In this document: positions 22,519 through 51,127 of the stretch, one piece after another
How the letters are laid out: each line of letters opens with the position of its first letter
Numbering within the stretch: position 1 is the first letter of the stretch
Source: Candidatus Shapirobacteria bacterium
GTDB lineage: Bacteria; Patescibacteriota; Microgenomatia; UBA12405
DNA length: 64,000 bases
Assembly: GCA_041658955.1 (NCBI GenBank)
Contig: JBAZZE010000003.1
Location: 3,842-67,841 of the forward strand
Reading direction: 5' to 3'
Translations under genes and position numbers: made by a program
The notes under the pieces: model-generated
What the model saw: only the letters and a program-made list of their open reading frames with translations
The model's database searches: none
Told to the model about the DNA's origin: nothing

Positions 22519-23510
22519 AATGGAGGCGAGTGGTTTTCGTAATGTTTTTTACTTGGTTTTTGATATTTGGCAGTAAATCAAAAATGTTGGGGGTAATAAA
22601 TGATTGCCTTCCATATAAAGAAGCGGGACTATTATCTGGAATAATCTTGGGAGATAAGACAGATTTTCCAAAAGATTTTGAAACTCAATTAATTAATAGC
22701 GGACTAATTCATCTAGTGGTGGTGTCGGGTAGTAATGTGATGTTGTTGATAGGAGGTGTGATAGAGAATTTGGCGTCATGGGTGGGGCGGAAGTGGGCCA
22801 TAATTTTTGGATTGGTGTTGGGGTGGAAGTATGCAATAATGGTCGGTTGGGAGGTGCCGATAGTGCGGGCGACGTTACTGCTGTCGATCATGTATTTTGC
22901 GCAACTTGTGGGGAGAAAATATAATTTGGTTAGGGGACTTCTGCTGTCAGTTTTAATAATGATAGTTGGTGAACCAAGGGTAATAGCCAGTGTCAGTTTT
23001 TGGCTATCGATAATGGCGTTTTTGGGAGTAATTACTGCCAAAAAATTTATGCTAACAAATCCAATTATTTTTCCGGTGGCGAGGTCTGCTTTGGTGACTT
23101 GTGCCAGAGGTGGATTTCGCTTCACTTTAGATAAAGTTATTAGAGAAATTCTTCAATCATTTAGGGAAACTGTTTGGATAATGATTTGGATTACACCGAT
23201 CTTAGCGCAAATATTTGGAAAAATAAGCTTAATATCGCCACTAACCAATGTCTTGGTTTTGGGATTGGTAGGGGTAGTGAGCGTGGTGGGAGCGATGGGG
23301 ATTATATTGGGGATGTGGTGGTTAACTTTGGGAAAAATGGTATTGTGGCTAACAATTCCGACTTTAAGTTATTTACGAAAGGTGGCAGAGTGGGGTGGGG
23401 GAAGTAGTGGATTAGAGATTGAATTTAATTGGTGGATTTTAGCGGGATATTATTTGATTTTAGGTTATTGGTTAATTAAAAAAAAGAAACATAATATCGA
23501 TTTCTTGTAA
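22515..23510 (+). CDS. comEC: ComEC/Rec2 competence (DNA channel) domain - N-terminal half of a split ComEC
   Basis: Signature GLIHLVVVSGSNVMLL (compare GLSHLLAISGLHV of the ComEC Competence domain). Multiple TM helices. A 4-nt overlap with comEA. The ORF ends immediately before intergenic repeat elements. Confidence 0.7.
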   Translation: MKWRRVVFVMFFTWFLIFGSKSKMLGVINDCLPYKEAGLLSGIILGDKTDFPKDFETQLINSGLIHLVVVSGSNVMLLIGGVIENLASWVGRKWAIIFGLVLGWKYAIMVGWEVPIVRATLLLSIMYFAQLVGRKYNLVRGLLLSVLIMIVGEPRVIASVSFWLSIMAFLGVITAKKFMLTNPIIFPVARSALVTCARGGFRFTLDKVIREILQSFRETVWIMIWITPILAQIFGKISLISPLTNVLVLGLVGVVSVVGAMGIILGMWWLTLGKMVLWLTIPTLSYLRKVAEWGGGSSGLEIEFNWWILAGYYLILGYWLIKKKKHNIDFL

Positions 23511-23580
23511 CCATTTTTTATTGTCGAGAATGAATGTGCGACGCACGTTCAAACAGACAATAAAAAAGATTACTGCGAAC
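23502..23580. repeat. REP-like hairpin element, copy A
   Basis: TTCTTGTAACCATTTTTTATTGTCGAGAATGAATGTGCGACGCACGTTCAAACAGACAATAAAAAAGATTACTGCGAAC. Nested inverted repeats TTATTGTC/GACAATAA, TGAA/TTCA and GTGCG/CGCAC. Both ends are A/T runs. Confidence 0.7.
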
Positions 23581-23603
23581 TCGCTATTTGTAACAAATAT
23601 TTT

Positions 23604-23786
23604 CAAACTCAAACACATTTCCTCCGTGGACCGATAATCGGGCTAGCAAGGTTAACTGAAACCACCACATCATTTTTAAGTCGAACCGATAGTCTGCCGA
23701 CTTGAATGATCCCATGCGCACGTCCGGCAGCTATCTGCATTCTCGTCGGCTACCAACCGAAAACAAGCCGACTGCGAAAACTTCTT
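23604..23786 (+). ncRNA. Conserved structured intergenic element B, copy 1 (candidate ncRNA or cis-regulatory RNA)
   Basis: Shares two blocks with 47205..47336: AAACTCAAA(C/G)ACATTTCCTCCGTGGACCGATAATCGG, and CATCTGCATTCTC-[hairpin]-TGCGAAAAC(T/C)TC. The hairpin is GTCGGCT...AGCCGAC here and GAAGACC...GGTCTTC in copy 2, which are compensatory substitutions. Confidence 0.45.
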
Positions 23787-23820
23787 TTAAAAACGATATG
23801 GTGTTTTCAAATAAATACAA

Positions 23821-24606
23821 ATGAAATATAAGTGGTGGCTGATAACTAGCTTAGTAGTTTTATTGTTAATGGTGTGGCAATTCAACCGTGATACTGGGGT
23901 GAAGGTGGTGTTTTGTGATGTAGGACAAGGCGATGGGGCGTTGATAATAAGCGGTAGTTTTCAGATGTTGATTGATGTTGGTGGTGGTAATCAGAAAATG
24001 CTCCAGTGTTTATCGAGGCACTTGCCGTTTTGGGATAAAACTATAGAAACAGTGGTAATTAGCCACTGGGATGCGGATCATAGTGGCGGACTACCAGGTA
24101 TTTATCGTTATTATAAGATTGAAAAACTATATAGTAATCAACTGTCGTCGGGGGACGGTGAACAAAAATTTTACCCAACTAAAGTATCAGAAAATGATGT
24201 CATTAGATTTGATGGGATAGATTTTGAAATACTTAATAAAGTAGTTGAAGGTGGCGACCCAAATGAAAATTCACTAATCGGAGTACTTAGTTATAAGGAT
24301 AAAAAAATATTAATGATGGGAGACGCTACTAGCGAAGCTGAACAAAGATTGGTGTGGCAAGGAATCCTTCGACAAGCTCAGGATGGAAAAGGAATAGATA
24401 TTTTAAAAATAAGTCATCACGGATCGGATAGGGCGACTTCGCCAGAATTACTTGATGAGGTCAACCCAGAAATGGCGATAATTTCAGTGGGTAAAGATAA
24501 TAAATTTGGTCACCCAGCAAAAACGGTAATAAAAAGACTGGAAGAGAGGGGTATAAAAATCAATAGAACCGATAATATGGGAGATGTAACGGTTACATAT
24601 GAATGA
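23821..24606 (+). CDS. ComEC C-terminal metallo-beta-lactamase-fold domain encoded as separate ORF
   Basis: N-terminal TM. Motifs VVFCDVGQGDGALII, ISHWDADHSGG (HxHxDH-type), LMMGDATSEAEQ, ISHHGSDRATS and NKFGHPAKTVIKRL, typical of the ComEC Lactamase_B domain. Confidence 0.65.
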   Translation: MKYKWWLITSLVVLLLMVWQFNRDTGVKVVFCDVGQGDGALIISGSFQMLIDVGGGNQKMLQCLSRHLPFWDKTIETVVISHWDADHSGGLPGIYRYYKIEKLYSNQLSSGDGEQKFYPTKVSENDVIRFDGIDFEILNKVVEGGDPNENSLIGVLSYKDKKILMMGDATSEAEQRLVWQGILRQAQDGKGIDILKISHHGSDRATSPELLDEVNPEMAIISVGKDNKFGHPAKTVIKRLEERGIKINRTDNMGDVTVTYE

Positions 24607-24674
24607 AATTGGTTGTATATATAGAGAAAAAAGTGTAAATTTAATATAGAAAAGTTGTAATTAATAAATCAAAA

Positions 24675-27600
24675 GTGCTGCTTCTTAAAAGACCAGTTTT
24701 AATGGGGGTTGTATTAGGGGTCTTTTTAGGGAGCCTTGTAGGTTGGGGGTGGTGGAGAGTATCGACTAAGGTTGAAGCAACAGATCGGACAATCACCAGT
24801 CGAGCTGATTTTGATCAAGGTTTGTTTGATAATACTGAAAGTAAAAGTAAGGAAGGAGAACTGAGACTAAAAGCCGGTGGTACTTGGGGAGCAAGGGTAT
24901 GGCAGATGCCAAAGGTAGGGATGACCAACCAAACAGGAATTGTCTCCGATGGAACCCACTTGTATATGTTGGCTGGTCAGGATAGGTATTTTGCTAAATA
25001 CATTCCAAATGAAGATCGATGGCAACAATTGGCCAATGCGCCACATGCTGCCTCGGTGGGGACTGATTTGGTGGTTGAGGGTGATTATATTTATGCAATT
25101 TTTGGGTCTTACACTAAGAACTTCAGTCGATACACGATCTCGACTGATACTTGGGTGAATATGGATGATGCCCCAGATTTGCTATACGATGGAGCTAGTT
25201 TGGGAACGGATGGAACCTATATTTATCTACTACGAGGGTCGTATACATCAGATTATTGGCGGTATAATCCATCAAATAATACATGGCTTAGTCTAGCGGC
25301 TCCACCAGCGACGATTGGAAGGGGGGCTAGCCTTTCATATAAGAATGGTTATTTTTATACGCCTAGAGGTGATTCAAACTTATTTTACAAATATGAAGTT
25401 GCCACAAATTTGTGGACTACTTTGCCAAATATACCGGCACCAAGTATCTCATATGCAGCTCACAACTCGGATATATTTGGAAATGCTTTGTATTACAACT
25501 TGGACTATGGGACGACAGCTTTTTACAAATTTGATTTGGGAACTACGTCTTGGTCAACACTACCGGGCTTGCCATGGCCATCTTATTACGTGGGTTTGGT
25601 GGGGGTGGGTGACACGGCTACTGGTCATGTATATGTTTTTCGAGGAAATGGTTCAGTCGATTTTTGGAAATATAATCCACGGACAAATAGTTTTGAGGGT
25701 TCGGTGGACACACCGAATGCTCCTAGTACAGGAGCAGACTTGCTTTATGATGGAAATTATCTGTATTTAAACCGAGGGGCAAATTCGACGAATATGTATC
25801 GGTACCAAATTGGAGGAACCTGGAAAACAATGGCAGATGCGCCGGCTGCTATGGGTGATGACACTAAAGGAATACAGGCTGGAGGATCGTTTTATTATAT
25901 TCGAGGGTCGGGGACGACTGCATTTTTTAAATTTGATCCGGCGATTGGGGCTAACGGGACTTGGACATCGATGTTGGGTACACCGGCCACAGCCAACTAC
26001 GGGGCGTCAGTAGTTTATCCAGGTAGTGGTAATTATATGTACGCAACCAGAGGTGCTTTGACACGAACTTTTTGGAGATACACAATTGGGGCAGGGGAAA
26101 CGTGGAGTGACGCGGCGGCGGCTGACTTACCAGATAATGCTGAAGCTGGGTATGGAGCTAGACTGGCGAGTGATGGAACAGATATCTATTACATGCCAGG
26201 AAGTGGAATGAGCAAACTTTATAAATACACTATCGGAACAACAACTTGGTCAGAAATTTCTGACATTCCCTTTTCGCCTTACTATGGGTCAGATATAAGC
26301 TACTATAACGGCAAATTGTACTTTTTGGCGGGTTACTATAAACCAGACTTTTGGGAATATACCATCGCCACCTCATCATGGAGAAGATTGGCGCCAACTC
26401 AAGATTATGGAGCCACAGAGATTGGTCCTTGGGCTGGTGCATCAATTGAATCATTGGGTAATGGTACTTTTTATGTAATTTTAGGAAATGGGGTGACAAG
26501 ACTTTTGACCTATACCGTAGATGCAAACAATTACCCAGTAAGTGGTGGGTGGACTAGTAAAGCCTTAGATTTATCATATGTAGCTTCGTGGAGTGGTCTG
26601 TCAATACAATCTTCACTGCCAGGAGACTCGTCAATTAGCTGGACAAGTCGAAGTAGTAGCGATCAAATAACTTGGAGTGACTGGATTGCTGGAGTGGGGA
26701 GTAGCATTGGGAGTCCGGTGGGAAGGTATCTTCAAGTTGGAGTAACCTTGGTATCGACGAGTGATCGGACAAATACGCCAAAGTTACTAGATATTCAAGT
26801 AAGTTATATTGGTGATACTGGAGTACCGACTAATCCATCAACGGTGGTGGGGGTGTCACAACAAGTATCGGGAGTGGGTCTGACATCGGCAGAAAGTTAT
26901 GGTTACCAAGCACCATATTTTAGTTGGAGCGGTGCGACTGACACTCAGACTTCAATTGCCGGATACTATGTTTATTTTGGAACTGGATCAAGTGCTTCAC
27001 CGGTGACCGAGGGAAATTATCAAACTGCGAGCAACTATCTAGTGACTACACCAATGGATCAGACGACTTACTATTTGAGATTGGTGACAGTTGATTCTGC
27101 TGGTAATAATTCAGCGGCAACTACAGCTTTTGTTTACACCTACAATGGAATTGCACCACCGATTACGATAACAAAGACAACTACAGCAGACTTTGGAGTG
27201 GGAACTACCAGCGCCGTGGATGTAAGTGGTGACAAGATAAAACTACAAGGTAAAGCAGGTTTTTGGGAGCAAGAGAGAATAAGCAGCCTGCCTGCAGGGA
27301 TATATTTAGGTGGTGACATGGCTTACAAAAGTAGCACTAATAAAATCTATTTATTTAGAGGCTACAATTCGAATACTTTTTATATTTATGACTTGACTAC
27401 CAATACAGTATCGGTGGGTCCGACAGCGCCAGGGGCAGTGTATTATGGTGGAGGTATGGTGGAAGGACCGGGTAATTACTTATATGCTATGAAAGGCTTA
27501 GTAACCAATTCTTTCTGGAGATTTGATGTGGGGACAACTACCTGGTCAGATGTAGCAGCGGCTGATTTACCACAGACTATATCGTATGGAGGATCGCTGG

Positions 27601-30600
27601 AATATGATGGCAGCCGATTTATTTATGCCACGCGAGGGTCGGGTGATGATGCCTTAATGAGATATGACACAATTGGTGACATCTGGGAAATGATGGCCAA
27701 TGCTGATTTTAATGCTCCAATAAATCAACCCAATAACACCATAAACGATGGTTCAGATATGGCTTATGATGGAAACGATACGTTGTATGTAATGCAGGGT
27801 GGTGGAAGAGATGGTTTTGCTGGATATAGTATTTCCACCAATACCTGGTTAACTCTTACTGATTTACCGATGTTTTCCGGGGCAGGTTCACAAATTGAAT
27901 ATGATAGTACTACCAATGCTATTTATTATGTTGCTGGTAGTGGTCGAAATTTTGTCTACAAATACGACATTGCGTCTCAATTGTGGAGTGATCTAGCAGA
28001 GACTCCAATGGCTGTAGGTGGAGGAGCTTCACTTAAAAAAATTGGAGGAAACTTATATTTGACAGTAGGTAACGGTTCGTTAGCGGTTTATAAGTACAAC
28101 ATCAATAAAAATATGTGGCTAATTCCGACCGTTGGTTTATTCGGTGGCTGGTTTAGAGGTAGTGATAGTCGCACTTTTGGATATGGGGCGGACATTGTAA
28201 AAGGGGATGGAAATAATATGTATTTAGTTAGAGGAAACTTTGACAATCTATTTGTCCGTTACAATTCAGTGACAGGAGTAGCGACTAGAATGGCCGATGT
28301 TCCTGCAGGCATGACTTCAGGTACGAAATTGGTTTATGATAGTGTTCATAACCGGATTTATGCAACCGTGGGGTCATATTATCGAAAGTTTTTTGTCTAT
28401 GATGTGGCCAGTGATACTTGGTCGGAAGAAGTAAATGATCCGCCGCCACTTGATAGTGCTGAGGGAAGTTCGATGGTGTTCAATGCTACAGATAGATATA
28501 TTTATTGGCTTCGAGGTGCTGGAACCCAGAGTTTCTATCGGTTCAACACTGAAGGCGTGGGGACTAGTAAATGGAGCATTTTGCCAAATACGGGATTGTC
28601 GATGAGCTATGGAGCTGATATGGTTTTGAAAAATGATTATATTTATACATTACGCGGTTCAAACACCACTGGATTTTTGAGATACGGTCCGTTGTCGGTA
28701 GGGGCGACTTGGTCAAATACGGCAGTGGCTGATTTACCAACCGGAGCCAATATATATAATGATGGATTCTTAGTTGATCTGGGTGGCGACTACTTAATGG
28801 CTTGTCGAGGTGGTAATCAAAACACCTGTTACCGTTACTCAATTACTGGAGATAGCTGGTCAGTAGTGACTAGCGCCACATCGCCATATATTTACACTGG
28901 AGGAGCAGGGGCAGTTAACTCGAGTGGCGAAAAAATGTTGGTGATAGCTGGAAATGGACAATTAAATACTATGTCTAATGGGTTGTATAGCTATGTAATT
29001 GAAAGTGAAAATTCGTCTTATGAAGAAAGTGGTGAATATATATCACCAGTCCATGACTTAACAGCAGTTTACAAATTTGCAAACTTAAGCATAGATGTTA
29101 CTTTGCCTGATAATACAGGACTTTCTGTATATACAAAATCATCGGCAGATAACTCGACTTGGGGAGACTGGACGGTAGCTTCTGAACAAAAAATTGTGGG
29201 TACCAATAGGAGTTTTAAGATAAACTCAACAACAGCGAGGTATTTACAGATTAAGTTGGCAATGACTTCGAGTGATGGAGTTAGGTCGGGAACAATAAAT
29301 AGCTACACAGTAAATTATTATCAAGATACAACAGAGCCAACAAACCCGACACTATTATCTGGGTATACCAATAGTGGGATGGGGACAACTTTAGTAAGTG
29401 GTGTCTGGAATAATTCGACTGCGCCATATTTCGGATGGAGTGGGGCGAGCGATGGAGCAAATGGTTCGGGGGTAGAGGGATATTATGTTTATTTTGGAAC
29501 CGGAGAAACGGCAAACCCGGTAACTTTAGGGACTTACACCACAGGAACATCTTTTATAGGAACAACCATGGTTTCAGGAGAAACTTATTATTTCAGACTT
29601 AAAACAAAAGATAGTGCTGATAATGTCAGCACGGATGTAGGAACAACTTTGGTTTATAAACTTGATAACACCGCCCCAGAAAACCCGACGGCTGTTTTGG
29701 CTAATCCACCAGGGTATACGACAATCGATAACTTTACTTTCACATGGGGAGCGGGCACAGATAGCTCTTCAGGGATTGCGGCATATTGTTATAAAACCGG
29801 TGCTAGTAGTGGTCCTCTAGCGACAGAACAATGCATTACTGATGTAGGAGTAACTGGGATAACTGGGATCACCAAATATCAAACTGATGAAAATATTTTT
29901 TACTTAAGAGTTAAAGATACGGCTGGCAACTTCGCCAGTAGTTCATTGACAGCAATTTATAAGTTTTCAGGAACTGCTCCAAGCCGACCAATGAACTTAA
30001 GAATGACTTACCCGGATGTGGGGACTAGCAACACGGTTAATGATTTTGCTTTTGCTTGGGATCAACCAGAAAGTTTCTTGGGAGCGGCTGCCAACCTAGT
30101 TTATAAATACTCAATAAACGAAGAACCAACGCCAAGTAATGTGAGTACAGTGGGGACGAATGTCCGATACTTAAGTCGAAGCCAATATGCCTCGCGTAGC
30201 GGAGTAAATACTATTTATGTGGTGGTATCAGACGAAGCTGGAAATATGGCAGTCACCGATGGAAAGTACACCAACTATGCCAGTTTGGATTTTGAAGCAT
30301 CAACTTCAGCTCCAGGAATTGGTAGAAACTTAGATATCTCTGATGTGTCAATTAAAGAAACTAGTAGTTGGAGATTAGCATTGACTTGGGATGCGCCTGA
30401 GGCATCTGGATCAGGTATCGCTAATTACCGGGTATACAGAAGCACTACTGCTGGAGCCTCTTGTACTTCAAGTATGGACAATTTTGGTGGAACAAACGGC
30501 TTTATATCGACAACGACTACCACATCGTATATTGACACAGAACTATTGCAGTCAAAATATTATTATTGTGTCAAAGCTTGTAATTCAACAGACCAGTGTG

Positions 30601-31880
30601 GGGCGCCAAGCTCAACTGTAGCCTTGCTACCAGATGGTAAGTGGCGAGTACCACCAACATTAACTGCAGAACCGGCGGCAAGTGTAAAAACAAAGACGGC
30701 GACAATTACCTGGTCGACAAATCGTAAGGGTAATTCATTTGTAAAGTATGGTAAAAGTGCTGGAGATTATGGTGAAGAAGTTGGATCATCAGATCTTTTG
30801 AGTGCCCATGAAATTGCTCTTACTGGCTTGGACCCGGGAACTACTTATTATTACAAAGCGACATGGACAGATGAGGATGGAAATACTGGCGAATCAACGG
30901 AGTATAGTTTTAAAACTAACCCGGCACCAATTGTGTCAACCGTTAAGATTGTTGACGTTGGATTGTATTCTGTTTATGTAAAATTTGGATTGAACCATGC
31001 ATCAAAAGCAACTATTCAATACGGTAAAACTACAGCGTATGGTTCGGTGGCTGAGTTAACCACATCAACTGCAGAATCGACTTATTCTGAAAAACTAGAT
31101 AGTTTGGAAGAGGGTACAAAATATCACTTAAAAATCGTGGCAGAGGATGAAGAGGGTAACAAATTTACATCGGATGATTATGAATTTGCGACTCTGCCAA
31201 TGCCTAAGATTGAGGGAGTAAAAATCCAGCAAGTAAAAGGAATGGCGAGTGCCACGATTATGGCGTCCTGGAAAACAAATACTGGAGTATCGTCGATTGT
31301 GAGTTATTACCCAGAGGGGAGACCAGAAATGACCAGAGATCAGGTTACTTTGACGCTAGGGTTGAATCACCAGATGCTAATTAAGGACCTGTTGGATGCG
31401 ACTGATTATGTAATATTGGTACGAGGTAAAGATCAAGTTGGAAATGAAGCTAAAATGAGTACCAACAAATTTAAAACTTCAACTGATCTTCGACCACCCT
31501 TAATTACTGATATGCGGGTAGAAGGGGCAGTGAGTGGAGTTGGTGAAGCGACCAAAGCCCAGATAATTGTTTATTGGAATACTGATGAGCCATCGACTGG
31601 CCAAGTTGAGTTTGGTGAAGGAACTGGTTCTGATTATCCCAATAGAACTCAAGAAGATGGAAACTTCACCCTGAATCACGTAGTAACTATTACTGACTTG
31701 AAACCTTCTCAGGTATATCATTTAAGAATAGTATCTAAAGACAGAATTGGTAACCAAGTGGAGTCATTTGATAATGTGACGGTAACACCAAAGGCAACCA
31801 AATCAGCACTCGACCTGGTGGTTAACAGTTTGTCTAAGAGTTTCGGATTCTTTGGAAGTTTAGGAAAAATAGCCCAATGA
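24675..31880 (+). CDS. Giant (2401 aa) membrane-anchored surface protein: about 40 Kelch-like beta-propeller repeats followed by FN3-like domains
   Basis: N-terminal TM. Long array of ~48-aa repeats of the form Y.Y...G.....F..Y.......W..L...P (e.g. IYLLRGSYTSDYWRYNPSNNTWLSLAAPPA). At least four C-terminal FN3/PAP-N-like units (ATITWSTNRKGNSFVKYGKSAGDYGEE...TGLDPGTTYYYKA). The stop overlaps the ABC ATPase start (ATGA). Confidence 0.7.
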   Translation: MLLLKRPVLMGVVLGVFLGSLVGWGWWRVSTKVEATDRTITSRADFDQGLFDNTESKSKEGELRLKAGGTWGARVWQMPKVGMTNQTGIVSDGTHLYMLAGQDRYFAKYIPNEDRWQQLANAPHAASVGTDLVVEGDYIYAIFGSYTKNFSRYTISTDTWVNMDDAPDLLYDGASLGTDGTYIYLLRGSYTSDYWRYNPSNNTWLSLAAPPATIGRGASLSYKNGYFYTPRGDSNLFYKYEVATNLWTTLPNIPAPSISYAAHNSDIFGNALYYNLDYGTTAFYKFDLGTTSWSTLPGLPWPSYYVGLVGVGDTATGHVYVFRGNGSVDFWKYNPRTNSFEGSVDTPNAPSTGADLLYDGNYLYLNRGANSTNMYRYQIGGTWKTMADAPAAMGDDTKGIQAGGSFYYIRGSGTTAFFKFDPAIGANGTWTSMLGTPATANYGASVVYPGSGNYMYATRGALTRTFWRYTIGAGETWSDAAAADLPDNAEAGYGARLASDGTDIYYMPGSGMSKLYKYTIGTTTWSEISDIPFSPYYGSDISYYNGKLYFLAGYYKPDFWEYTIATSSWRRLAPTQDYGATEIGPWAGASIESLGNGTFYVILGNGVTRLLTYTVDANNYPVSGGWTSKALDLSYVASWSGLSIQSSLPGDSSISWTSRSSSDQITWSDWIAGVGSSIGSPVGRYLQVGVTLVSTSDRTNTPKLLDIQVSYIGDTGVPTNPSTVVGVSQQVSGVGLTSAESYGYQAPYFSWSGATDTQTSIAGYYVYFGTGSSASPVTEGNYQTASNYLVTTPMDQTTYYLRLVTVDSAGNNSAATTAFVYTYNGIAPPITITKTTTADFGVGTTSAVDVSGDKIKLQGKAGFWEQERISSLPAGIYLGGDMAYKSSTNKIYLFRGYNSNTFYIYDLTTNTVSVGPTAPGAVYYGGGMVEGPGNYLYAMKGLVTNSFWRFDVGTTTWSDVAAADLPQTISYGGSLEYDGSRFIYATRGSGDDALMRYDTIGDIWEMMANADFNAPINQPNNTINDGSDMAYDGNDTLYVMQGGGRDGFAGYSISTNTWLTLTDLPMFSGAGSQIEYDSTTNAIYYVAGSGRNFVYKYDIASQLWSDLAETPMAVGGGASLKKIGGNLYLTVGNGSLAVYKYNINKNMWLIPTVGLFGGWFRGSDSRTFGYGADIVKGDGNNMYLVRGNFDNLFVRYNSVTGVATRMADVPAGMTSGTKLVYDSVHNRIYATVGSYYRKFFVYDVASDTWSEEVNDPPPLDSAEGSSMVFNATDRYIYWLRGAGTQSFYRFNTEGVGTSKWSILPNTGLSMSYGADMVLKNDYIYTLRGSNTTGFLRYGPLSVGATWSNTAVADLPTGANIYNDGFLVDLGGDYLMACRGGNQNTCYRYSITGDSWSVVTSATSPYIYTGGAGAVNSSGEKMLVIAGNGQLNTMSNGLYSYVIESENSSYEESGEYISPVHDLTAVYKFANLSIDVTLPDNTGLSVYTKSSADNSTWGDWTVASEQKIVGTNRSFKINSTTARYLQIKLAMTSSDGVRSGTINSYTVNYYQDTTEPTNPTLLSGYTNSGMGTTLVSGVWNNSTAPYFGWSGASDGANGSGVEGYYVYFGTGETANPVTLGTYTTGTSFIGTTMVSGETYYFRLKTKDSADNVSTDVGTTLVYKLDNTAPENPTAVLANPPGYTTIDNFTFTWGAGTDSSSGIAAYCYKTGASSGPLATEQCITDVGVTGITGITKYQTDENIFYLRVKDTAGNFASSSLTAIYKFSGTAPSRPMNLRMTYPDVGTSNTVNDFAFAWDQPESFLGAAANLVYKYSINEEPTPSNVSTVGTNVRYLSRSQYASRSGVNTIYVVVSDEAGNMAVTDGKYTNYASLDFEASTSAPGIGRNLDISDVSIKETSSWRLALTWDAPEASGSGIANYRVYRSTTAGASCTSSMDNFGGTNGFISTTTTTSYIDTELLQSKYYYCVKACNSTDQCGAPSSTVALLPDGKWRVPPTLTAEPAASVKTKTATITWSTNRKGNSFVKYGKSAGDYGEEVGSSDLLSAHEIALTGLDPGTTYYYKATWTDEDGNTGESTEYSFKTNPAPIVSTVKIVDVGLYSVYVKFGLNHASKATIQYGKTTAYGSVAELTTSTAESTYSEKLDSLEEGTKYHLKIVAEDEEGNKFTSDDYEFATLPMPKIEGVKIQQVKGMASATIMASWKTNTGVSSIVSYYPEGRPEMTRDQVTLTLGLNHQMLIKDLLDATDYVILVRGKDQVGNEAKMSTNKFKTSTDLRPPLITDMRVEGAVSGVGEATKAQIIVYWNTDEPSTGQVEFGEGTGSDYPNRTQEDGNFTLNHVVTITDLKPSQVYHLRIVSKDRIGNQVESFDNVTVTPKATKSALDLVVNSLSKSFGFFGSLGKIAQ

Positions 31881-40605: not shown

Positions 40606-40935
40606 CTATTTTATCCTTTCAATTAGCATGACAGCATCTGTTTTGGCCCTTCTTTTGTCTTCGAACAGGATTCTTCCGATATCGACACGATACACAAGGC
40701 AGGTAACTTGATGCTTTCTTTCCATATACCGGACTAGTCCGGTGGCTTCACCTCTGCTTTTGACAACACCGATACCACCCCAGCCACTCCACGGGCCTTT
40801 GCCTTCGACTATTTGTTCAGGTGGTAAACGAACCCAAGTGTTCTCTTCGTATTCAAGAATGTTTGGATTCTGGCGCAGTCCCAGGGATTTTAAATCTGAA
40901 GTGACTACTTTGAAGAATTCCTTTTGGGCCATCAA
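40606..40935 (-). CDS. Hypothetical protein
   Basis: 109-aa ORF with a 4-nt overlap with the upstream PEGA gene. No recognisable motif. Confidence 0.3.
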   Translation of the reverse strand: MMAQKEFFKVVTSDLKSLGLRQNPNILEYEENTWVRLPPEQIVEGKGPWSGWGGIGVVKSRGEATGLVRYMERKHQVTCLVYRVDIGRILFEDKRRAKTDAVMLIERIK

Positions 40936-42155: not shown

Positions 42156-42230
42156 GAATAGGGATTATAGAGGAGGTGGGTAGGGTTTTGGCTGTACGAG
42201 TCTGTTAACAAATATTGGTAGAATGTAGTA

Positions 42231-43232: not shown

Positions 43233-43626
43233 TCTAGTAGGATAATAAGTCTTGTAATAGTTTTTATTTCAAATAATTTAGTTATCAGTTTTTTAGCTTT
43301 TATATCATTATAACTGCAGTTTTGTTTTTTGATTAATAAATCGACTAACTCTTAATCTTTACCCTAGATTATGGATTATTTTGTGAGTAAATGTTTTATT
43401 CATAATGACTATATTTAGCCTAAGGTTAATAACAGAATTATTGGCTTATAGAAAATTGGGTAAACTGAGGTGATATAGTTAACAAGCTATGCTTGTAGTA
43501 TATTGATTATATAGGGTAAGGTGATAGCAAGTGATATAGTTTTTTGACAAGAAAAGTCGAGAAAAAAAAGAAGAGGAGTGTTAAAATGAAATTAGATAAT
43601 GTTTGATATAGTTCATAAACAAAAAA

Positions 43627-44475
43627 ATGGCGATGAAGCGTAAAAAAATGGATAGATCTACATACAAAAGTGGCCTATCTAATTGGGATATCTTTGGTAC
43701 TCCGATGTTTGGCAGAGATAGGTTTGCTCTGCTAAAACTAGTGGGTAGTCTACCGGAGAATGCTCAGGCATGGATTGCGACGGTAAATCCAGAATTTGTG
43801 ATGAAAGCCCAAGAGGATATGGATTTTATGAGAATACTCCAAAATAGGACGACTTACAATGTGGCTGATGGGGTGGGATTGTTGTGGGCAAAAGAGGTTT
43901 TGAAGGTAAAAAGTAGTCAAGTTTTAACCAGAATTGGGAAGAGATTAGTTAAGGGTTTTCTGGTTGGAATGGAAGTGATTGGGGGGAGAAAAATGGATGG
44001 ACTTATCTCGGGTGCTGACCTAATTGATAGTCTATGTAAGGAAGCGGCAGAGAATAATAAGTCAGTATTTTTCTTAGGTGGTTGGGGGGACCGGGGAGCT
44101 AGAAGTGCAGCATTGTTTAAAAAGAAATATCCCACGCTAAAAGTGTCTGGTAGTTATGCTGGTAATCGAGTGGGTGAGGATGAAAAGACCTTGAAGGTGC
44201 TATCTGAATACAAAATTGACTATTTATTCGTGGCTTATGCCATGAAGACACAAGAAGAATGGATTAATCGCAACTTGGACAAGCTTAAAATAAGATTGGT
44301 AATGGGGGTGGGGCGAAGTTTTGACTATTATTCAGGAGATTTGCGCCGAGCACCCACATGGGTACGTAAAATGGGTTTTGAATGGCTATATTCTCTTATT
44401 ATGGAACCTAAAAGGTGGAAGCGACAATTGGCTTTGCCGAGGTTTATTGGTAAGGTTTTGGTGTCTGATAGGTAG
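43627..44475 (+). CDS. WecB/TagA/CpsF-family glycosyltransferase (N-acetylmannosaminyltransferase-like)
   Basis: Motifs ATVNPEFVMKA, DGVGLLWA, FFLGG, and GVGRSFDYYSGDLRRAPTWVRKMGFEWLYSLIMEPKRW, which is the characteristic C-terminal signature of the family. Confidence 0.75.
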   Translation: MAMKRKKMDRSTYKSGLSNWDIFGTPMFGRDRFALLKLVGSLPENAQAWIATVNPEFVMKAQEDMDFMRILQNRTTYNVADGVGLLWAKEVLKVKSSQVLTRIGKRLVKGFLVGMEVIGGRKMDGLISGADLIDSLCKEAAENNKSVFFLGGWGDRGARSAALFKKKYPTLKVSGSYAGNRVGEDEKTLKVLSEYKIDYLFVAYAMKTQEEWINRNLDKLKIRLVMGVGRSFDYYSGDLRRAPTWVRKMGFEWLYSLIMEPKRWKRQLALPRFIGKVLVSDR

Positions 44476-44493
44476 GGGTGGTAATATGAGTGT

Positions 44494-45003
44494 ATGAGTC
44501 AAGATGTAAAAGATCCTATTCAATATGTTGAGTCAGGTTCTCTGACTCCGGATAAATATTTGACACCAAGGGCGACTGAGGTAATGGTAAGACTGCCAGG
44601 TGAAAAAATAACATCTGAACTATTTCCCCAATTATTGGCAGAACTTGATGGATTTAAGGATGATCAAGAAATGATTAGGAATGCGTGTGGGCATGCTGAA
44701 CACTTTTTTGCACCAGACGTTGACTTTGGTAACACCACTTGTGAGTCGGTGAGCTATGATCCAGGAGGTTTAATTGGATTAAAATTTGACAATCCTCGAT
44801 TGCAGGCAATAGTGATCCAACCGGATGATGATGGAGATGGAAAGTGCCGTCTTCAAGTTGTAGCCGATGGTATGAGGCATGAATATAAGATGCAAGGTGG
44901 GACCTTGGTGAGTGGGTTTAATGAGAAAATTGCCGAAGAATCCAGAACTTATCAAATGTTGGCGCACTTAGGTGTCGATGTGGCCAAGATGAATGATAAA
45001 TAA
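44494..45003 (+). CDS. Hypothetical protein
   Basis: 169-aa ORF in an operon-like position between the glycosyltransferase and the J-domain gene. No motif recognised. Confidence 0.35.
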
Positions 45004-45005
45004 CA

Positions 45006-46097
45006 ATGACGTACAAGGACTATTATGAGATTTTAGGTGTTGGTAGAAAAGCATCGGATGATGATATTAAGGCTGCATATAGAAAATTAGTCAAAATAAC
45101 ACATACTGATATTTACCCTGAAAAAGAAGAGGAATTTAAAGAACTCAATGAAGCATATGGGGTATTGAGTGATGTTGATAAACGAGCAAGATACGATCGA
45201 TTTGGAAAAGAAGGCTTGAAGCAGGGTTTTGTACCTCCGGCTGATGGTTTTGGTGATTTTTGGAGTGAGTTTGGGGTTGGTGGTGGTATGTTTGGCGATA
45301 TTTTGCGGAGTATGTTTAGCGGTGATAAGGCTGAGCAAGCAAGAGCTAGACAGAGGGCAGAAGAAATGTTGAAGGATTTACAGGCTCAACAGGAGCGGAC
45401 AAGAACCGAGGGTGCGACTCGAACTACGGTAAATCGTCCATCAAATGACCATCCAAAATCAACAAGGTCAGCTCAACCAAATATAAAATTTGGGTTAGGA
45501 GACATTAAAATTCCTGAAGAAGAGTTTAGTCTTATGGCTGGACTAACTAAGATCGAAGGTATGAGAGGGCCGGTAACCTTAGAACATGATGAATATCGAA
45601 TTTTGAAGGACAAGATGGGCAATACTCGGGTTGAGGTAAAGATGTCTCGGTTTATAAAAGATGGTAGAACTGAAGTTCGGGTGGGTAAACCAGGTACCTT
45701 TGAGACTTTTAATAAAACACGGAAAGATTGGGTTGATGCTAGTTGGATAGATCAGGGAAATGTGATGGGAGCCGATATGCCCAAAAATTATCGAAGTTTA
45801 ATTGGATTAGTTAATCAAGTGGCTTTAACAATTTCCCATCAGGATGAACTGACCGATGTAACGATAACTAGCTTAAACATTGCTGCCCGGGTGAGTTTCC
45901 CGGATGATCGGAAGAGAGAGGTGGAGGGTGATCGTCTTCGCCAGGAATTGGTGATTGAATCGGGAAAATGGTTGTTTACTGGGGTTGATGATGAAGTTAA
46001 GCCGAAAAATATGCCAGTAGAGGGTGGTATGGCTTCCAAGCCTAAGTCGGCACCAATAAATCTAAATGAAGGTTTGAAGATGCGTAGGAAAACTTAG
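45006..46097 (+). CDS. J-domain protein with degenerate HPD motif (HTD), non-DnaJ C-terminal region
   Basis: N-terminal [63 protein letters not shown] is a J-domain with HPD replaced by HTD. There is no CxxCxGxG zinc finger. Confidence 0.6.
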
Positions 46098-47155
46098 TTG
46101 AACTTACCAAGAAATTTTATTTCTGGGATGAGTTCAAAGCCAAACTTTTCACGGACCATATCTTGAACATATTTGACTAAATTGTAGAAATCAGCCGCTG
46201 TGGCAGTACCGGTGTTGATAAAAAAGTTGCTATGTTCGTTAGAAATCTTGGCACCGCCGATACTAAAACCTTTTAAAGACAGTTCATGGTCGATAATCCA
46301 ACCGGTGGATTTTTGTTCACCCCAGATTTTTTGACAAATTTCCAGGGAAGGATTGGCAAAAGCACTACCGGGGGAAGCCATAGATTGAACTTTGGATTTT
46401 TGAGCGATCCAGGCCTTATAGACTTCCATGGCTTTATTGGTGTCGCCTCGGAAGAGCTTAAGGGTGACGGAAAGAACGATAAGATGGGGATTTTTTTGGA
46501 ACATACTGGTTTCGTATTTCCAGTTGAGCTTATCTTTTTTTAATAGTTCGGTTTTTCCGGTTTTAAGGTTAAATACCTTGATAGTGTCGGTGTAATCGGA
46601 AAAATGGTAGCTACCACCATGAATATTTTGATAGACAGCACCACCCACTGTACCGGGAATATAACCAAACCATTGAAGTCCGGTAAGACCGGCAGAAATG
46701 AGTTGGGTAATGGCAAATGGCAGGGGGGTGCCGGCTTGAATAGTAACTTCTTGGTAGGGTAGGTGAGACTCATCATAATCAAGACGGGTAAAGTCCAAAT
46801 ATTTTTGAGGTTCGTTTTCATTTCTTTGGGCATAAGTGACCTTGAAGTTTGAATCTGGTTCGTGAATCCGAGGGTGAATGTCGATTTTATTGGCTTTGTT
46901 GACAATGGTTAATCCGGGAAGGCCGGCGTCAGAGATGACGACATTGGAACCAGAACCCAGGATGGTGAAGGGTAATTCGGGGTGATTATGGAGAAATTTG
47001 AGAAGATCGAAGAGTTCACTTTGTTTGGTGGCGATGGCGAAAAGTTCAGCATTACCACCGAGATGAAGGGTGTTGTAGTTAGACAAAGAATGATTTTCAG
47101 CGACGAACATGCCAGTGTGGACTTGTTGGAGTTCTTCAAATAGGGGGTGAGACAT
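46094..47155 (-). CDS. murB: UDP-N-acetylenolpyruvoylglucosamine reductase
   Basis: FAD-binding N-terminus [11 protein letters not shown]...[21 protein letters not shown]-terminal [19 protein letters not shown]...GSAFANP, typical of MurB. Confidence 0.85.
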
Positions 47156-47204
47156 AGCTTTATTATACTAAATTAAATCTAGACGATTCTTATTTTTGTG
47201 TTGC

Positions 47205-47336
47205 TTCAAACTCAAAGACATTTCCTCCGTGGACCGATAATCGGCTATCCTCCTTAATCCCAAGCGCGTGTACCGCCGTCATCTGCATTCTCGAAGACCT
47301 CCATACAAAAGAAACAGGTCTTCTGCGAAACCTCCA
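47205..47336 (+). ncRNA. Conserved structured intergenic element B, copy 2
   Basis: See copy 1. This copy lacks the ~80-nt insert present in copy 1. It contains the palindrome CCGATAATCGG. Confidence 0.45.
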
Positions 47337-47775
47337 CTTTGGAAACGTCTTTGAGTTTTATTTGATCAAAATTAACTTTTAATGAATTTTAATAAACACC
47401 TTAAATTACGATATTAATATATATTAAATCTTGGAGTAAAATAATATAGGTAAAGATGTGGATAGGTGTGGATAAGTATATACAGCCTGTAATATTAATA
47501 GGATAATGTTCGATAGCGAAGGGGAGGAACTGTTTCGTCAGTTGGGGGTATATAGTGTGGAGTTTCAGGACAGTTTATTTTGCAGCGATTACATTCACTT
47601 CGAGTGACGATGACAGCGTCTTCGAATTCGGTGAGGTGATGAATCTTAAGTAAATCTCGTTCAATTTTAGCGCTAGAGCAGAAGACTATTTGTTCAGATA
47701 TAATTTTGACCCTTGTCAGAATATCAAAACGGGAAATTCATGCAACTGGCAAAAATTCTAGAAAACTTGTAACCG

Positions 47776-47846
47776 TTTTTCTCACTCGAAGTCAAGTGTG
47801 CGACGCACGTTGAACCTCGCTCGAAAAAAGTTACTGCGTTTTCTTT
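47776..47846. repeat. REP-like element, divergent/partial copy B'
   Basis: CTCACTCGAAGTCAAGTGTGCGACGCACGTTGAACCTCGCTCGAAAAAAGTTACTGCG keeps the inner TCAA-GTGCGACGCAC-TTGA core and the AAAAAAG(A)TTAC tail. The outer arm is degenerate. Confidence 0.5.
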
Positions 47847-47900
47847 TAGAATTTTTGACAAATTTCAGCTTCAATCCTATCTACTTGATAAAATAGTTAA

Positions 47901-48743
47901 ATGAAACGGGGGATAAGACTGGCAATTATTTTAGGTCTACTAGTGGGAATGGTAATTGTATTGGTAGCTTGGAGAATAAATGCCGATCCTAAGGTGGCAC
48001 CGATTGTCCGAGTTATCGAGCCAACTCCGACAGTAGTGGTAGAAAAACCGCTGAAATTTGTGGTGATGTCGGATATTCATATGAACTGGACTGATTGGCG
48101 GAAGTTTTTGGCCAAAGTGAAACCAAGTGGTCAGATGGTGTTGGTGACTGGAGATATGACATCGCTTGGGAAGAAAAATGAATTACTGGCAGCCAAAAAA
48201 GTATTAGATGAGTCGGGAGTGAAATATGCGGTCATTCCGGGAAACCATGACATGTGGGAATCAGATCGGATTAAGACTAGCCTTTTTAACGAAGTCTTTG
48301 GAAAGGAATACCGAAGTGTTCGGCTTGAAGGTAGAAAATTTATCATGATTAATAATGGTCGAGCGACAGGATTAGGAACAGTTCAACGGGCATGGTTAGA
48401 GAATGAAGTAAAAGAATGTACGGTAGTAAAGTGTATTGCTCTGATGCATATGCCCTTAAATCATGGAATATCAGCCCATATCATGGGAGAGAAAAACAAA
48501 AAAGTAACTGAGGAGGTAGGGGAATTAATGAAACTTTTGAAAGCGAATAATGTAATGGACATTATAGCTGGACATCTGCATTATTCCGGGTCATATGAAT
48601 TGGATGGTCTACGAACTTATCTTTCTGGTGCAGTGACTCGGGAGCGCAACACTCAAACTCCACGGTACACCCAATACACAATGACTGGCGATCAACTTCA
48701 GGGATTGGTGGTAGTTGGAGAAGAAAATGAAATAGGTGATTAG
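47901..48743 (+). CDS. Calcineurin-like metallophosphoesterase (membrane-anchored)
   Basis: N-terminal TM. Motifs VVMSDIHMN, VLVTGDMTSLG, VIPGNHDMWE and IAGHLHYSG are the MPE signature. Confidence 0.7.
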   Translation: MKRGIRLAIILGLLVGMVIVLVAWRINADPKVAPIVRVIEPTPTVVVEKPLKFVVMSDIHMNWTDWRKFLAKVKPSGQMVLVTGDMTSLGKKNELLAAKKVLDESGVKYAVIPGNHDMWESDRIKTSLFNEVFGKEYRSVRLEGRKFIMINNGRATGLGTVQRAWLENEVKECTVVKCIALMHMPLNHGISAHIMGEKNKKVTEEVGELMKLLKANNVMDIIAGHLHYSGSYELDGLRTYLSGAVTRERNTQTPRYTQYTMTGDQLQGLVVVGEENEIGD

Positions 48744-48766
48744 TTTCTTTGTAGTTATAATTAGTC

Positions 48767-49240
48767 ATGATATTGGGTATTGATCCAGGGTTAGAAAACA
48801 CCGGTTGGGGAATTATAGAGGAGAATAAAAATGGTGGATATAAGTTGGTTGACTGTGGGGTAATAGTGACAAGTAATAAAAAAAGTTATCCGGAAAGACT
48901 CAAAGAAATCTACGACAGTCTTTTGGAAATAGTAAAGAAAAATAAAATAACCGAGATGGCGATGGAGAGTTTGTTTTTTGCCAAAAATAGTTCGTCGGCG
49001 ATCAGGGTGGCGGAAGCCATTGGGGTGATAAAACTTTGTGGAATAAATAACGGACTAGACCTGGTGGAATACACCCCATTACAAGTAAAAATGGCGTTGG
49101 TGGGATTTGGAAGGGCTGAAAAAGAACAAGTGGAAATTATGGTGCGGACTGAGCTATCCCTAGAAGAGGAGATTAGCCCTTCGCATGCGGCAGATGCGGT
49201 GGCAGTAGCCCTGACACAAGCGTTTACAATGAAAGTATAG
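48767..49240 (+). CDS. ruvC: Holliday junction resolvase RuvC
   Basis: MILGIDPGLENTGWGII (catalytic Asp). ...AMESLFFAKN (Glu). C-terminal HAADAVAVAL. Confidence 0.85.
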   Translation: MILGIDPGLENTGWGIIEENKNGGYKLVDCGVIVTSNKKSYPERLKEIYDSLLEIVKKNKITEMAMESLFFAKNSSSAIRVAEAIGVIKLCGINNGLDLVEYTPLQVKMALVGFGRAEKEQVEIMVRTELSLEEEISPSHAADAVAVALTQAFTMKV

Positions 49241-49317
49241 TGTAATTTATATTACATTATTTCTAAACAAACTCTCATATTATTTTAAGTTGAAGTAAAA
49301 GCTACTTAATACTTGAA

Positions 49318-49397
49318 TTCTCGTAACCATTTTTTATTGCCGAGAATCAATCTGGTTGTCCAGGTTGAAACAGTCAATAAAAAAGATTACTTCGAAT
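49318..49397. repeat. REP-like hairpin element, copy C (between ruvC and ruvA)
   Basis: TTCTCGTAACCATTTTTTATTGCCGAGAATCAATCTGGTTGTCCAGGTTGAAACAGTCAATAAAAAAGATTACTTCGAA. The architecture is the same as copy A, with the inner palindrome replaced by CTGG/CCAG. Confidence 0.7.
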
Positions 49398-49503
49398 TCA
49401 GTATTAATCCACCAAACGAATTAACTAACTGTTAAACAGTTCTTTCAAAATAAGATATATGTTTCGTCTTTCCTTCGGGGGTGGGTAAATGTTATGATGA
49501 GCT

Positions 49504-50067
49504 ATGATCAGTAGCCTCCGAGGCAAGGTGAGTCGAATTAGTCAAAATCAGGTAGAGATTGATGTGGGTGGAGTAGGATATTCAGTCTTCATGGGAAGAC
49601 ATAATTTTATTGAAGACCAAGAAGTAAAAGTGTTTACTTTTATGGCAGTTTCAGAAAATGATATGAGTCTTTATGGATTCGAGAAGTTCGAAGATCTTGA
49701 TCTTTTTAAAATGATGATTACTGTATCTGGAGTTGGTCCAAAGTCAGCGGCTCATATTTTGGCGAGCACGACTGGAACCGAGATAGTTAAAGCAATCGGG
49801 GATGCTGATGTTGAATTTTTCAAAAAACTAAAAGGGATTGGTTTAAAAACGGCTCAAAGAATTATCGTTGATCTTAAATCAAAAATTGGGGGGTTGGGAG
49901 TACTTGATTTGAAAGATAGTTTGCCACTGTTGGAAGATGATGTAGTGCTGAGCTTACAACAGCTTGGGTTTGAAAAGAAAGAAATTGAAAAAGTAGTCAA
50001 GAGAATTCCGGCGGAGTTAGAAGAGTTGGAAGAGAGGATTAGTTGGTGCTTAACAAATATCAAATAA
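49504..50067 (+). CDS. ruvA: Holliday junction DNA helicase RuvA
   Basis: MISSLRGKV...[11 protein letters not shown]-fold. HhH motifs [16 protein letters not shown] and [15 protein letters not shown]-terminal domain III. Confidence 0.85.
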
Positions 50068-51026
50068 TGACTGACAAAAACCTGGATCCAAAACTAAAGC
50101 CGGAAGATAAAGAAATTGAACTATCGATTCGACCAAAGGGACTTTCAGAATTTATTGGTCAACAAAAATTAAAAGATCAGCTCGACATATTTATTCGGGC
50201 GGCCAAGTCACGAGGGGAACCTCTTGACCATATTTTGTTTTACGGACCTCCGGGTCTTGGTAAGACTACTCTGGCCATGCTTTTATCAGGGGAGATGGGA
50301 TCGAATATTAAAATTACTTCTGGTCCAGCATTGACGAGAGCGGGTGACCTAGCATCCATTCTGACAAGCCTTAAGAAAGGCGATTTTTTATTCATCGATG
50401 AAATTCATCGACTCAACAAAATTGTTGAGGAGACGCTTTATAGTGCGATGGAAGACTATGCTCTCGATATTGTCTTGGGTAAAGGTCCATCGGCAAGGTC
50501 GGTTCGATTGAAATTACAAAAATTTACAATTGTCGGAGCGACGACTCGGATAGGTCTGATTAGTAGTCCAATGAGAGACCGGTTTGGAATGGTTCAGCAA
50601 ATTGATTTTTATGAAGAACAAAATTTAAAAGATATTGTGGAGCGGACAGCCAAAGTACTGGGTGTAGAAATCGAAACCCTGGCTGCCCGAGAAATTGCCA
50701 AGAGGTCGAGAGGTACTCCGAGAATTGCTAATCGACTTTTAAAGAGAGTTAGGGATTATGCTCAAGTGGCAGGTGATGGAAAAATAAATTGGAAAGAATC
50801 AAAGGAAGCACTTCTAAAATTGGGGGTAGATGAGTTAGGTTTATCTGATGCAGATAGGAGGTATTTGGATGTGGTCAAAAACCAGTATGGTGGAGGACCG
50901 GTGGGGGTGGAAAATATTGCGGCGGCATTGACTGAAGATGTAGAAACCATTACCGATGTCTATGAACCGTTTTTGATGAAGAAGGGGTTGGTGAAGAGAA
51001 CTCCTCGAGGAAGGGTGACGAGTTAA
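50043..51026 (+). CDS. ruvB: Holliday junction DNA helicase RuvB
   Basis: AAA+ Walker [12 protein letters not shown]. Walker [11 protein letters not shown]. Sensor/arginine finger and winged-helix C-terminus. A 25-nt overlap with ruvA. Confidence 0.9.
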
Positions 51027-51045
51027 CTTATTACAATAAAACCTA

Positions 51046-51127
51046 TCAAGTTCTCGTAACCATTTTTTATTGCCAAGAATCAAGTGTGCGACGCACGTTG
51101 AAACAGGCAAAAAAAAAGATTACTTCG
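51046..51127. repeat. REP-like hairpin element, copy D (after ruvB)
   Basis: TTCTCGTAACCATTTTTTATTGCCAAGAATCAAGTGTGCGACGCACGTTGAAACAGGCAATAAAAAAAAGATTACTTCGAA. Arms TTATTGCC/GGCAATAA, TCAA/TTGA and GTGCG/CGCAC. Confidence 0.7.

Follow-up and report, generated by a model that had tools for sequence, protein, structure and literature searches.

What kind of element recurs between the genes of Candidatus Shapirobacteria? The question is raised by a 64,000-nucleotide stretch of contig JBAZZE010000003.1 (positions 3,842 to 67,841, hereafter the window), in which four copies of a long imperfect hairpin lie in intergenic spacers. An earlier note on this DNA had described them as a family similar to repetitive extragenic palindromes (REP), with pairing preserved by compensatory base changes. 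Our analysis supported a multi-copy family of intergenic hairpins, and "REP-like" was a fair label as an analogy. The hairpins were joined by a second element, X, which by its predicted fold is a three-armed version on the hairpin scaffold with an extra arm. Hairpins and X would together form a superfamily of non-coding foldback repeats that is restricted to one narrow lineage of uncultivated Candidatus Shapirobacteria (Candidate Phyla Radiation, CPR; Microgenomates), a reading that we favour with about even confidence on the basis of sequence comparison. The comparisons showed that the elements behave like mobile or recombining selfish DNA, in the manner of REP and bacterial interspersed mosaic elements (BIME), ERIC, Correia or miniature inverted-repeat transposable elements (MITEs), and not like an anciently conserved regulator, because slot exchange, gain and loss outpaced the flanking genes and near-identical cores occurred at unrelated loci.

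The copies in the window were established with a covariance model built from nine hairpin copies (R1) and run with filters off over the whole 64 kb. It matched exactly four hairpins, with E-values from 5e-25 to 9e-16, all at the positions where the earlier note had placed them. Nothing else scored better than E = 3.8, except the hairpins' own reverse strands, which matched weakly. The 17-mer of the 5' arm had exactly three occurrences in the window, and the 21-mer of the 3' arm had three matches at one mismatch or fewer against 0.00 expected. All four hairpins were on the plus strand:

23489-23592, plus strand: hairpin A, subtype 1 (R1 106 bits, E 5e-22)
47751-47853, plus strand: hairpin B, a diverged copy of subtype 2, similar to the copy in related locus L015 (R1 79 bits, E 9e-16)
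49305-49409, plus strand: hairpin C, subtype 1 with the apex variant TCTGG/CCAGG (R1 105 bits, E 8e-22)
51038-51142, plus strand: hairpin D, subtype 1 (R1 119 bits, E 5e-25)

The GTAACC of hairpin A holds the TAA stop codon (23508-23510) of the upstream open reading frame (ORF), which encodes a Competence domain. Hairpin C sits between ruvC and ruvA, and hairpin D lies 12 nt past the ruvB stop codon, between convergent genes.

Read inward, a hairpin consists of a closing stem, a small purine-rich internal loop, a GTAAC/GATTAC segment with a conserved C x A opposition, a T6/A6 segment, an internal loop and the apex TCAA-GTGTGCGACGCAC-GTTGA, with the conserved apex sequence TGTGCGACGCACGTTGA. 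The loop is conserved as TTCTCG ... CTKCGAA, with TTCTYG also found on its 5' side, and the whole helix is approximately 45 bp, AU-rich and interrupted by internal loops. The core was conserved, and the closing stems were specific to a locus or subfamily, among them GAATTC/GAATTC in hairpins C and L002, CAAGTTC/GAACTTG (also written AAGTTC/GAACTT) in D, L004 and L007, CCCCTC/GAGTTGGG in L005a, and GAAAAC/GTTTTC plus AAATTCTA/TAGAATTT in B. A loose left end, TAATTAAA, was common to only four copies, and at least four subtypes could be told apart by sequence. Since a locus-specific closing stem of 8-16 bp encloses the core, the actual unit is approximately 105 nt long, longer than the ~80 nt first proposed.

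The nested stems described in the earlier note were read correctly in the middle position (TCAA/TTGA in C and D, TGAA/TTCA in A) and in the inner position (GTGCG/CGCAC in A and D, CTGG/CCAG in C), and L007 carries an inner-stem intermediate, TCTGC/GCAGG. For the outer stem, GTC/GAC in A and GCC/GGC in D were correct; the GCC/GGC attributed to C is in fact GCC/GTC, with one C x U mismatch. An alternative pairing of TTCTCG with CGAGAA, suggested as a possible switch, was perfect in three of nine close copies, contained a C x A mismatch in five and was missing from the other subtypes; the switch is not conserved. The A/T runs had been taken for flanking tails of a bidirectional terminator. They are not terminator tails, because T6 pairs with A6 inside the helix, and with AU-rich stems, intrahelical T/A runs and a T-run past the closing stem in some copies only, the element did not qualify as a canonical bidirectional terminator.

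As RNA, the extended hairpin copies folded at -22 to -36 kcal/mol on the plus strand and -29 to -42 on the minus strand (hairpin A, -31.7 and -34.2; hairpin C, -33.5 and -41.7). The minus strand was more stable by 2-12 kcal/mol in 12 of 13 copies. As DNA, both strands folded at -19 to -22 kcal/mol. RNA z-scores were -3 to -6 on both strands for A, C and D, and -0.3 (plus) and -2.5 (minus) for B.

Element X was scored in the window and in related loci with a second covariance model (R2), built on the minus strand. Full and partial copies in the window were as follows:

23658-23813, minus strand: X1, 155 nt (R2 161 bits, E 1e-35)
47206-47365, minus strand: X2, a second full X (R2 143 bits, E 3e-31)
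23602-23641, plus strand: a 40-nt partial duplicate of the 5' part of X, 98% identical to 47205-47244 (repeat search, blastn)
49267-49289, plus strand: the 5' strand of an X closing stem, surviving as a remnant to the left of hairpin C and matching the P1 strand of the L007 X at 18/18 positions
49440-49461, plus strand: a putative remnant from the X closing stem (3' strand) on the right side of hairpin C, with a weak 11-nt exact match (E 0.034)
51149-51185, plus strand: an X 3' remnant (TGCGAAAAC...GGAAATGTATTTGACATTGAA), right of hairpin D, 84% identical over 37 nt to positions 117-153 of the L005 X

In the putative remnant at 49440-49461, blastn covers 11 nt of the P1 3' strand, and the remainder is an extension made by eye. 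X1 ends 8 nt ahead of the start of the Lactamase_B ORF (23821), and X2 lies in the divergent spacer between murB and the metallophosphoesterase gene. X folds as a three-way junction with a long closing stem of variable sequence and two arms, P2 and P3; its unpaired junction nucleotides are conserved, and P3 is flanked by TTCTCG ... CTGCGAA as in the hairpins, so that a TTCTCG-hairpin-CTKCGAA motif is common to both elements. X was also present in L002, L005, L007, L009, L016, L023/L026, L024 and L028. The L028 copy is without the second arm, P2, carries CTTCGAA as in the hairpins and occupies the ruvC/ruvA slot of a strain with RuvB 99% identical.

Remnants of X closing stems were found beside hairpins C, D, A and L007a by blastn, and beside the L015 hairpin by reading of the spacer alignment. 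In the window, hairpin A is followed by the 40-nt X fragment and then by the full X, in that order, and hairpin C sits between two X closing-stem remnants. The L028 copy and these remnants link the hairpin and X forms as intermediates. Two other identities for X were rejected. A small ORF that starts from GGAGGAAATG on the minus strand, with 2-nt spacing to a motif resembling a ribosome-binding site, ran for 17, 50 or 6 codons in three copies as read by eye, and for a tmRNA- or tRNA-like origin, suggested by GGTTCGA, ARAGORN found just two ordinary tRNAs.

Whether the folds themselves are maintained was examined in a model-fitted alignment of 13 distinct hairpin copies, with 500 shuffles and slid-partner controls. 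Standard pairs filled 91.7% of hairpin cells, compared with 81.6% in shuffles and 36-45% with slid partners. Both sides had changed in 15 of 34 pairs, and none of the 500 shuffles reached any of the five measures. An independent MAFFT/RNAalifold alignment of 16 copies gave 12 of 23 pairs changed on both sides; GTAAC/GATTAC, for example, became GCAAC/GATTGC in L028. For X, 30 of 48 pairs had changed on both sides among seven sequences, which none of 500 shuffles matched. Significant covariation for one fold was found in the hairpins and in X alike, and the claim of pairing kept through compensatory changes was upheld. On the evidence of these alignments, the covariation shows that the single-stranded fold of the hairpins matters. 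It is no proof of RNA, because a DNA palindrome whose arms correct one another by templating shows the same pattern.

Conserved folds were combined with rapid turnover of the elements themselves. Related contigs were fetched around RuvB, ComEC, Jag and their homologues, and the occupants of the same spacers were compared:

comEC-N / Lactamase_B slot: hairpin and X in the window; subtype-2 hairpin in L015; subtype-3 hairpin in L017; X in L016
slot after ruvB: hairpin D in the window; a different hairpin in L028 (RuvB 99%); X in L007; nothing in L009-L014
murB / metallophosphoesterase slot: X and hairpin B in the window; X fragment and hairpin in L007; X in L009; nothing in L010 and L012
slot after jag (Jag 100% identical): subtype 1 in L005; subtype 3 in L022; X in L023; nothing in L024 (97%)

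Strains with 96-100% identical flanking proteins differed in presence, absence and subtype at one slot, and hairpin cores were near-identical at unrelated loci. A candidate insertion footprint was seen when L005a was compared with the empty site in L024: the element lies within the last four codons of yidC, is bordered left and right by ATAAA and provides a new TAA stop codon, which makes ATAAA one candidate 5-bp target duplication. A second candidate, TTTTTTG at L005b, was ambiguous: TTGGATAATT, which flanks it, belongs to the X closing stem in L023, and the adjoining sequence may be an X remnant. None of the remaining sites offered a clean empty allele for comparison. L022 was dismissed as an empty site for L005a, as its contig merely begins after the repeat. 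The earlier note had also regarded the element as splitting comEC. ComEC in the window (22515-24606) is indeed encoded by separate Competence-domain and metallo-beta-lactamase ORFs; a Competence-only ORF is the rule in the clade, with a spacer in all relatives examined, and 120 of 120 listed ComEC homologues were Competence-domain-only proteins of roughly 240-440 aa, mostly ~300 aa. The element therefore did not split the gene, as ComEC is split throughout the clade.

The elements usually began at or within ~15 nt of a stop codon, and in 11 of 13 hairpins the start was 0-65 nt past the stop codon of a gene in the same orientation. Such placement would also be expected if hairpin and X were interchangeable cis-acting gene-end RNA modules on the sense (plus) transcript, acting as factor-dependent or tail-less terminators, RNase III sites or 3' exonuclease barriers, selected for function and copied between slots incidentally. 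As read from the sequences, a -10-like hexamer stands 6-7 nt ahead of the start codon in many downstream genes, so that each gene would need its own upstream transcript end; subtypes and X replace one another at one slot, as equivalents would; structure is kept by covariation; and a T4-T7 run directly follows the closing stem in some copies. We nevertheless consider a purely functional origin unlikely. Close relatives carried no element at all at the same slots (L010, L012, L014, L024), and several copies stand in divergent promoter spacers where there is no transcript end (B, L007a, X2 and the X of L002 and L009). No T-run follows C, L002 or L005a, the short GC-rich stem with U-tract of an intrinsic terminator was absent from the elements, and a consensus terminator scan placed canonical GC-rich, T-tailed terminators elsewhere in the window (58827-58804 and 53239-53212) and none at the elements. 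The sense-strand fold of X was also much weaker than the antisense fold. Function alone would leave the uniform orientation of the elements unexplained, because a near-perfect palindrome would terminate either way.

That orientation was the most regular property of the family. All scored elements (~15 hairpin and 7-8 X loci) were on the same strand with respect to the G-rich genomic strand, including loci with negative skew as fetched (L002, L004) and those in divergent spacers. The GC skew was very strong, at 0.2-0.45 on the plus strand (window 1-64000; L024 1-20471). It stayed positive across minus-strand genes, among them dnaA and dnaN in L024, with no sign change at the dnaA/rpmH spacer, and it is therefore not merely a coding-strand effect. 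Uniform orientation and covarying stems together suggest that what is kept is the fold of one particular strand, and they point to a process that would be strand-specific; replication and transcription are not separable as its cause, because most genes are co-oriented with the skew.

One such process would be movement of the elements as single-stranded DNA (ssDNA) by an HUH (Y1) enzyme encoded elsewhere, either REP/RAYT-like or derived from IS200/IS605, with insertion coupled to the replication fork, so that leading and lagging strands would set the orientation. IS200/IS605 elements insert preferentially into the lagging-strand template, and the uniform orientation with respect to GC skew, divergent spacers included, would be accounted for; the skew itself stays positive across dnaA and dnaN. 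Both strands fold as DNA, and in the plus-strand hairpin a C x A mismatch is conserved alongside a bulged A, features also seen in hairpins that strand-specific enzymes read. Movement by an HUH enzyme is nonetheless improbable on present evidence. No Y1 transposase was found near any copy; a link to RAYT through P0183, a protein with Pfam Y1_Tnp plus Competence, was rejected as a faint match with no element beside it. The unit of 105-155 nt and the lack of Y1_Tnp near any copy set the family apart from REP/RAYT systems. The left-end flanks AAA, TTG, GGT and CCT showed no conserved tetra- or pentanucleotide target such as IS200/IS605 elements would have, and the 5-bp direct duplication at one site is not something that HUH transposition makes. 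The strand favoured by the wobble pairs in X is moreover the minus strand, and this would not be the lagging-strand template provided that the G-rich strand leads.

The same wobble pairs raise a different prospect, that X, and perhaps the hairpins, are small structured RNA genes whose transcripts come from the minus strand and run antisense to most genes. For X, the consensus fold reached -35.6 kcal/mol on the minus strand against -20.6 on the plus strand, and the minus strand held 16 G-U cells against 2 A-C cells over 10 different pairs, a count that is biased somewhat by the construction of R2 on that strand. The X minus strand is G-rich (+0.11 to +0.26), opposite in sign to the skew of the surrounding genome, and the number of pairs changed on both sides in just seven sequences, the conserved junction nucleotides and the greater stability of nearly all hairpins on the minus strand fit a transcribed minus strand as well. 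Other observations make antisense RNA genes quite improbable. Sequence conservation stops at the X closing stem on both sides, and X therefore brings no promoter or terminator with it; its contexts are unrelated (co-directional, convergent and divergent), and its presence varies among near-identical strains. Wobble counts in the hairpins single out neither strand (20 G-U on the plus strand against 6 A-C, and a single conserved pair accounts for 11 of the 20). The greater stability of the hairpins on the minus strand stems from a few inherited features and not from independent events.

The family appeared to be confined to close relatives of the window, whose RuvB matches, at 100% identity, a protein from a Candidatus Shapirobacteria metagenome-assembled genome. 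A pattern scan of 185,579 species-representative genomes returned one true hairpin, in a Shapirobacteria metagenome-assembled genome (L002), and one chance match. A scan of JGI metagenomes returned five loci with true hairpins, all from one sample series, and two chance matches. The fetched contigs added copies in L007, L015, L017, L021-L024, L027 and L028, which brought the hairpin loci in related contigs to about 12 beyond the four of the window; no hairpins were found in relatives with RuvB 90-97% identical (L009-L014). In L027, rpmH is joined to jag via a hairpin, and this locus was not used because it is most likely an assembly chimera at the repeat. Metagenome contigs often started or ended in these repeats, as at the starts of L005, L009 and L022. 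Element density was approximately one per 10 kb in the window, and the genome is roughly 1 Mb.

Known families did not account for the elements. Rfam 15, searched over the whole window at the gathering threshold, returned two tRNAs and no family at the elements, and at E <= 10 over 23400-23900 and 47100-51250 it gave chance sub-threshold matches only; a known RNA family was rejected on both. A phage or plasmid origin was rejected after no match was found in viral contigs or in phage or plasmid collections. An integron-like array in L005 was also rejected, as the genes between its copies are the core genes rnpA, yidC and jag and no integrase was found; read by eye, the GTAACC/GATTAC ends misfit the attC core sites RYYYAAC/GTTRRRY. 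No parent insertion sequence (IS) with the same ends was found in the window, the fetched loci, or the plasmid, phage or viral-contig collections. Terminal inverted repeats conserved between copies, as in MITEs, were not seen, since the closing stems differ by locus. An origin as fragments of one known IS or MITE, which the earlier note had named as the outcome that would overturn its reading, thus found agreement in the mobile or recombining behaviour and the one candidate 5-bp duplication, and disagreement in the lack of a match to any known IS or MITE and in termini that vary by locus. A literature search for intergenic repeat families in CPR bacteria found nothing relevant, and as far as that search showed, no such family has been described for CPR/Patescibacteria.

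Several observations weigh against a superfamily of mobile foldback repeats. The termini vary around a conserved core, the reverse of what is seen in elements with conserved, transposase-bound terminal inverted repeats. The one reasonably clean target duplication (ATAAA) is short and A/T-rich, and neither the window nor the neighbourhood of any copy yielded a transposase, integrase or RAYT. A DDE-type mechanism would not explain the uniform orientation, and the junction and apex hold conserved unpaired nucleotides, above all in X, as one would sooner expect in a functional RNA or a protein-binding site than in junk DNA. Almost every neighbouring gene also runs with the skew, which confounds replication with transcription. 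A more unusual arrangement is conceivable for X and the hairpins: a strand-locked structured element of a kind not yet described, whose conserved three-way-junction core is read from the strand antisense to almost every gene and would direct its own copying into the centres of gene-end palindromes. The core could then act as a guide, a ribozyme or a recognition RNA (or ssDNA), and this would jointly explain the locus-specific closing stems, the near-identical cores and the uniform orientation. We give such self-copying no more than a slim chance.

For the mobile foldback superfamily that we favour, the sequence patterns are compatible with replacement of palindrome centres, by insertion into an older element or by gene conversion of it. 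Centre replacement fits better than terminal-repeat transposition, because the closing stems are locus-specific and the cores near-identical. The single-stranded fold may be needed for spread or for tolerance of the elements by the cell, and candidate strand-specific processes include handling of ssDNA at the replication fork, gene conversion at the centre of a palindrome and selection via transcription. The most likely effect on the cell would be that the upstream transcript ends in a long RNA hairpin, which could serve as a barrier or insulator between genes; many of the genes that would be insulated seem to have their own promoter directly at the start codon.

Comparable repeats are known from other bacteria. 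ERIC (also IRU) of enterobacteria and Correia elements (CREE) of Neisseria are imperfect palindromes of ~100-150 bp that are intergenic and usually transcribed. They occur in many copies with strain-variable presence, form long RNA hairpins that can affect mRNA ends and have no coding capacity. ERIC occurs in both orientations, and Correia has conserved terminal repeats with TA duplications. The Shapirobacteria elements resemble both in size, intergenic palindromic form and strain variability; they differ in their variable termini around a conserved core and apex, three-armed variant and uniform orientation, and they are not known to share sequence similarity with either. Similar to REP/BIME, they are palindromes just past gene ends that form strain-variable mosaics at fixed slots, and REP/BIME are thought to act as single-stranded hairpins and are known to stabilise upstream mRNA. 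REPs, however, are 20-40 nt long with a GTAG-type head and usually stand in inverted pairs, whereas the Shapirobacteria elements are ~105-155 nt long and single, and no RAYT was found. With DDE-derived MITEs they have in common that they are short, non-coding, multi-copy and foldback, with insertion polymorphism and one candidate 5-bp duplication; unlike MITEs, they have unconserved ends, interior covariation and a strict orientation bias, and no parent IS was found. Rho-independent terminators share with them a hairpin right after stop codons and, in some copies, a T-run, but differ from the AU-rich ~45-bp stems with internal loops and intrahelical T6/A6, which are often tail-less and also occur in divergent spacers.

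CPR/Patescibacteria genomes are small and thought to be repeat-poor, and here structured repeats are dense and turn over fast. Such repeats break metagenome assemblies and can mis-join them, mark variation at the strain level and edge variable gene cassettes. Their orientation, and the three-armed variant with antisense wobble pairs, suggest a strand-specific mechanism. If the elements do act as transcript-end signals, they would also bear on how closely packed and possibly leaderless genes are kept apart.

Gene content also varied around the slots. L007 has a hairpin and an HD-domain gene where the window has another ORF, and the ruvC/ruvA slot holds a 1.4-kb cassette in L007, L009 and L010. 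Both ruv slots were compared for gene content between the window and L007, L009, L010 and L028. Between ruvC and ruvA (window 49241-49503), relatives carry a Trans_reg_C cassette that is not in the window. Past ruvB (window 51143-53181), the contents vary widely between BrnT/CopG toxin-antitoxin genes, AAA_14/DUF4143 ATPases, and ORFs of 206 and 435 aa. In the murB/metallophosphoesterase spacer, ~240-330 bp of the window (~47510-47750) are missing from L007 and L010; this segment ends in hairpin B and contains no ORF of 80 aa or more. In L010, a tandem simple repeat of the AATTAAAA type (5045-5090) fills the spacer, with no element there.

Upstream of the metallophosphoesterase gene, two adjacent 9-mers resembling DnaA boxes, TGTGGATAG and TGTGGATAA, lie at 47457-47475. 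The pair is kept in L007 and L010, and one of the two in L012; it is probably not oriC, because there is no skew switch at this position. In many genes, a -10-like hexamer (TATAAT, TAGAAT or TAAAAT) ends 5-7 nt ahead of the start codon, with no Shine-Dalgarno sequence, as at 47155-47170 (murB, minus strand) and 47885-47903 in the window and at 1625-1646 and 3740-3758 in L005. This placement suggests single-gene transcription units that may be leaderless. The window also contains very large ORFs of 1503, 1751 and 2401 aa (1883-11627, minus strand; 24675-31880, plus strand), and the two large minus-strand ORFs carry internal repeats ~620-730 nt apart.

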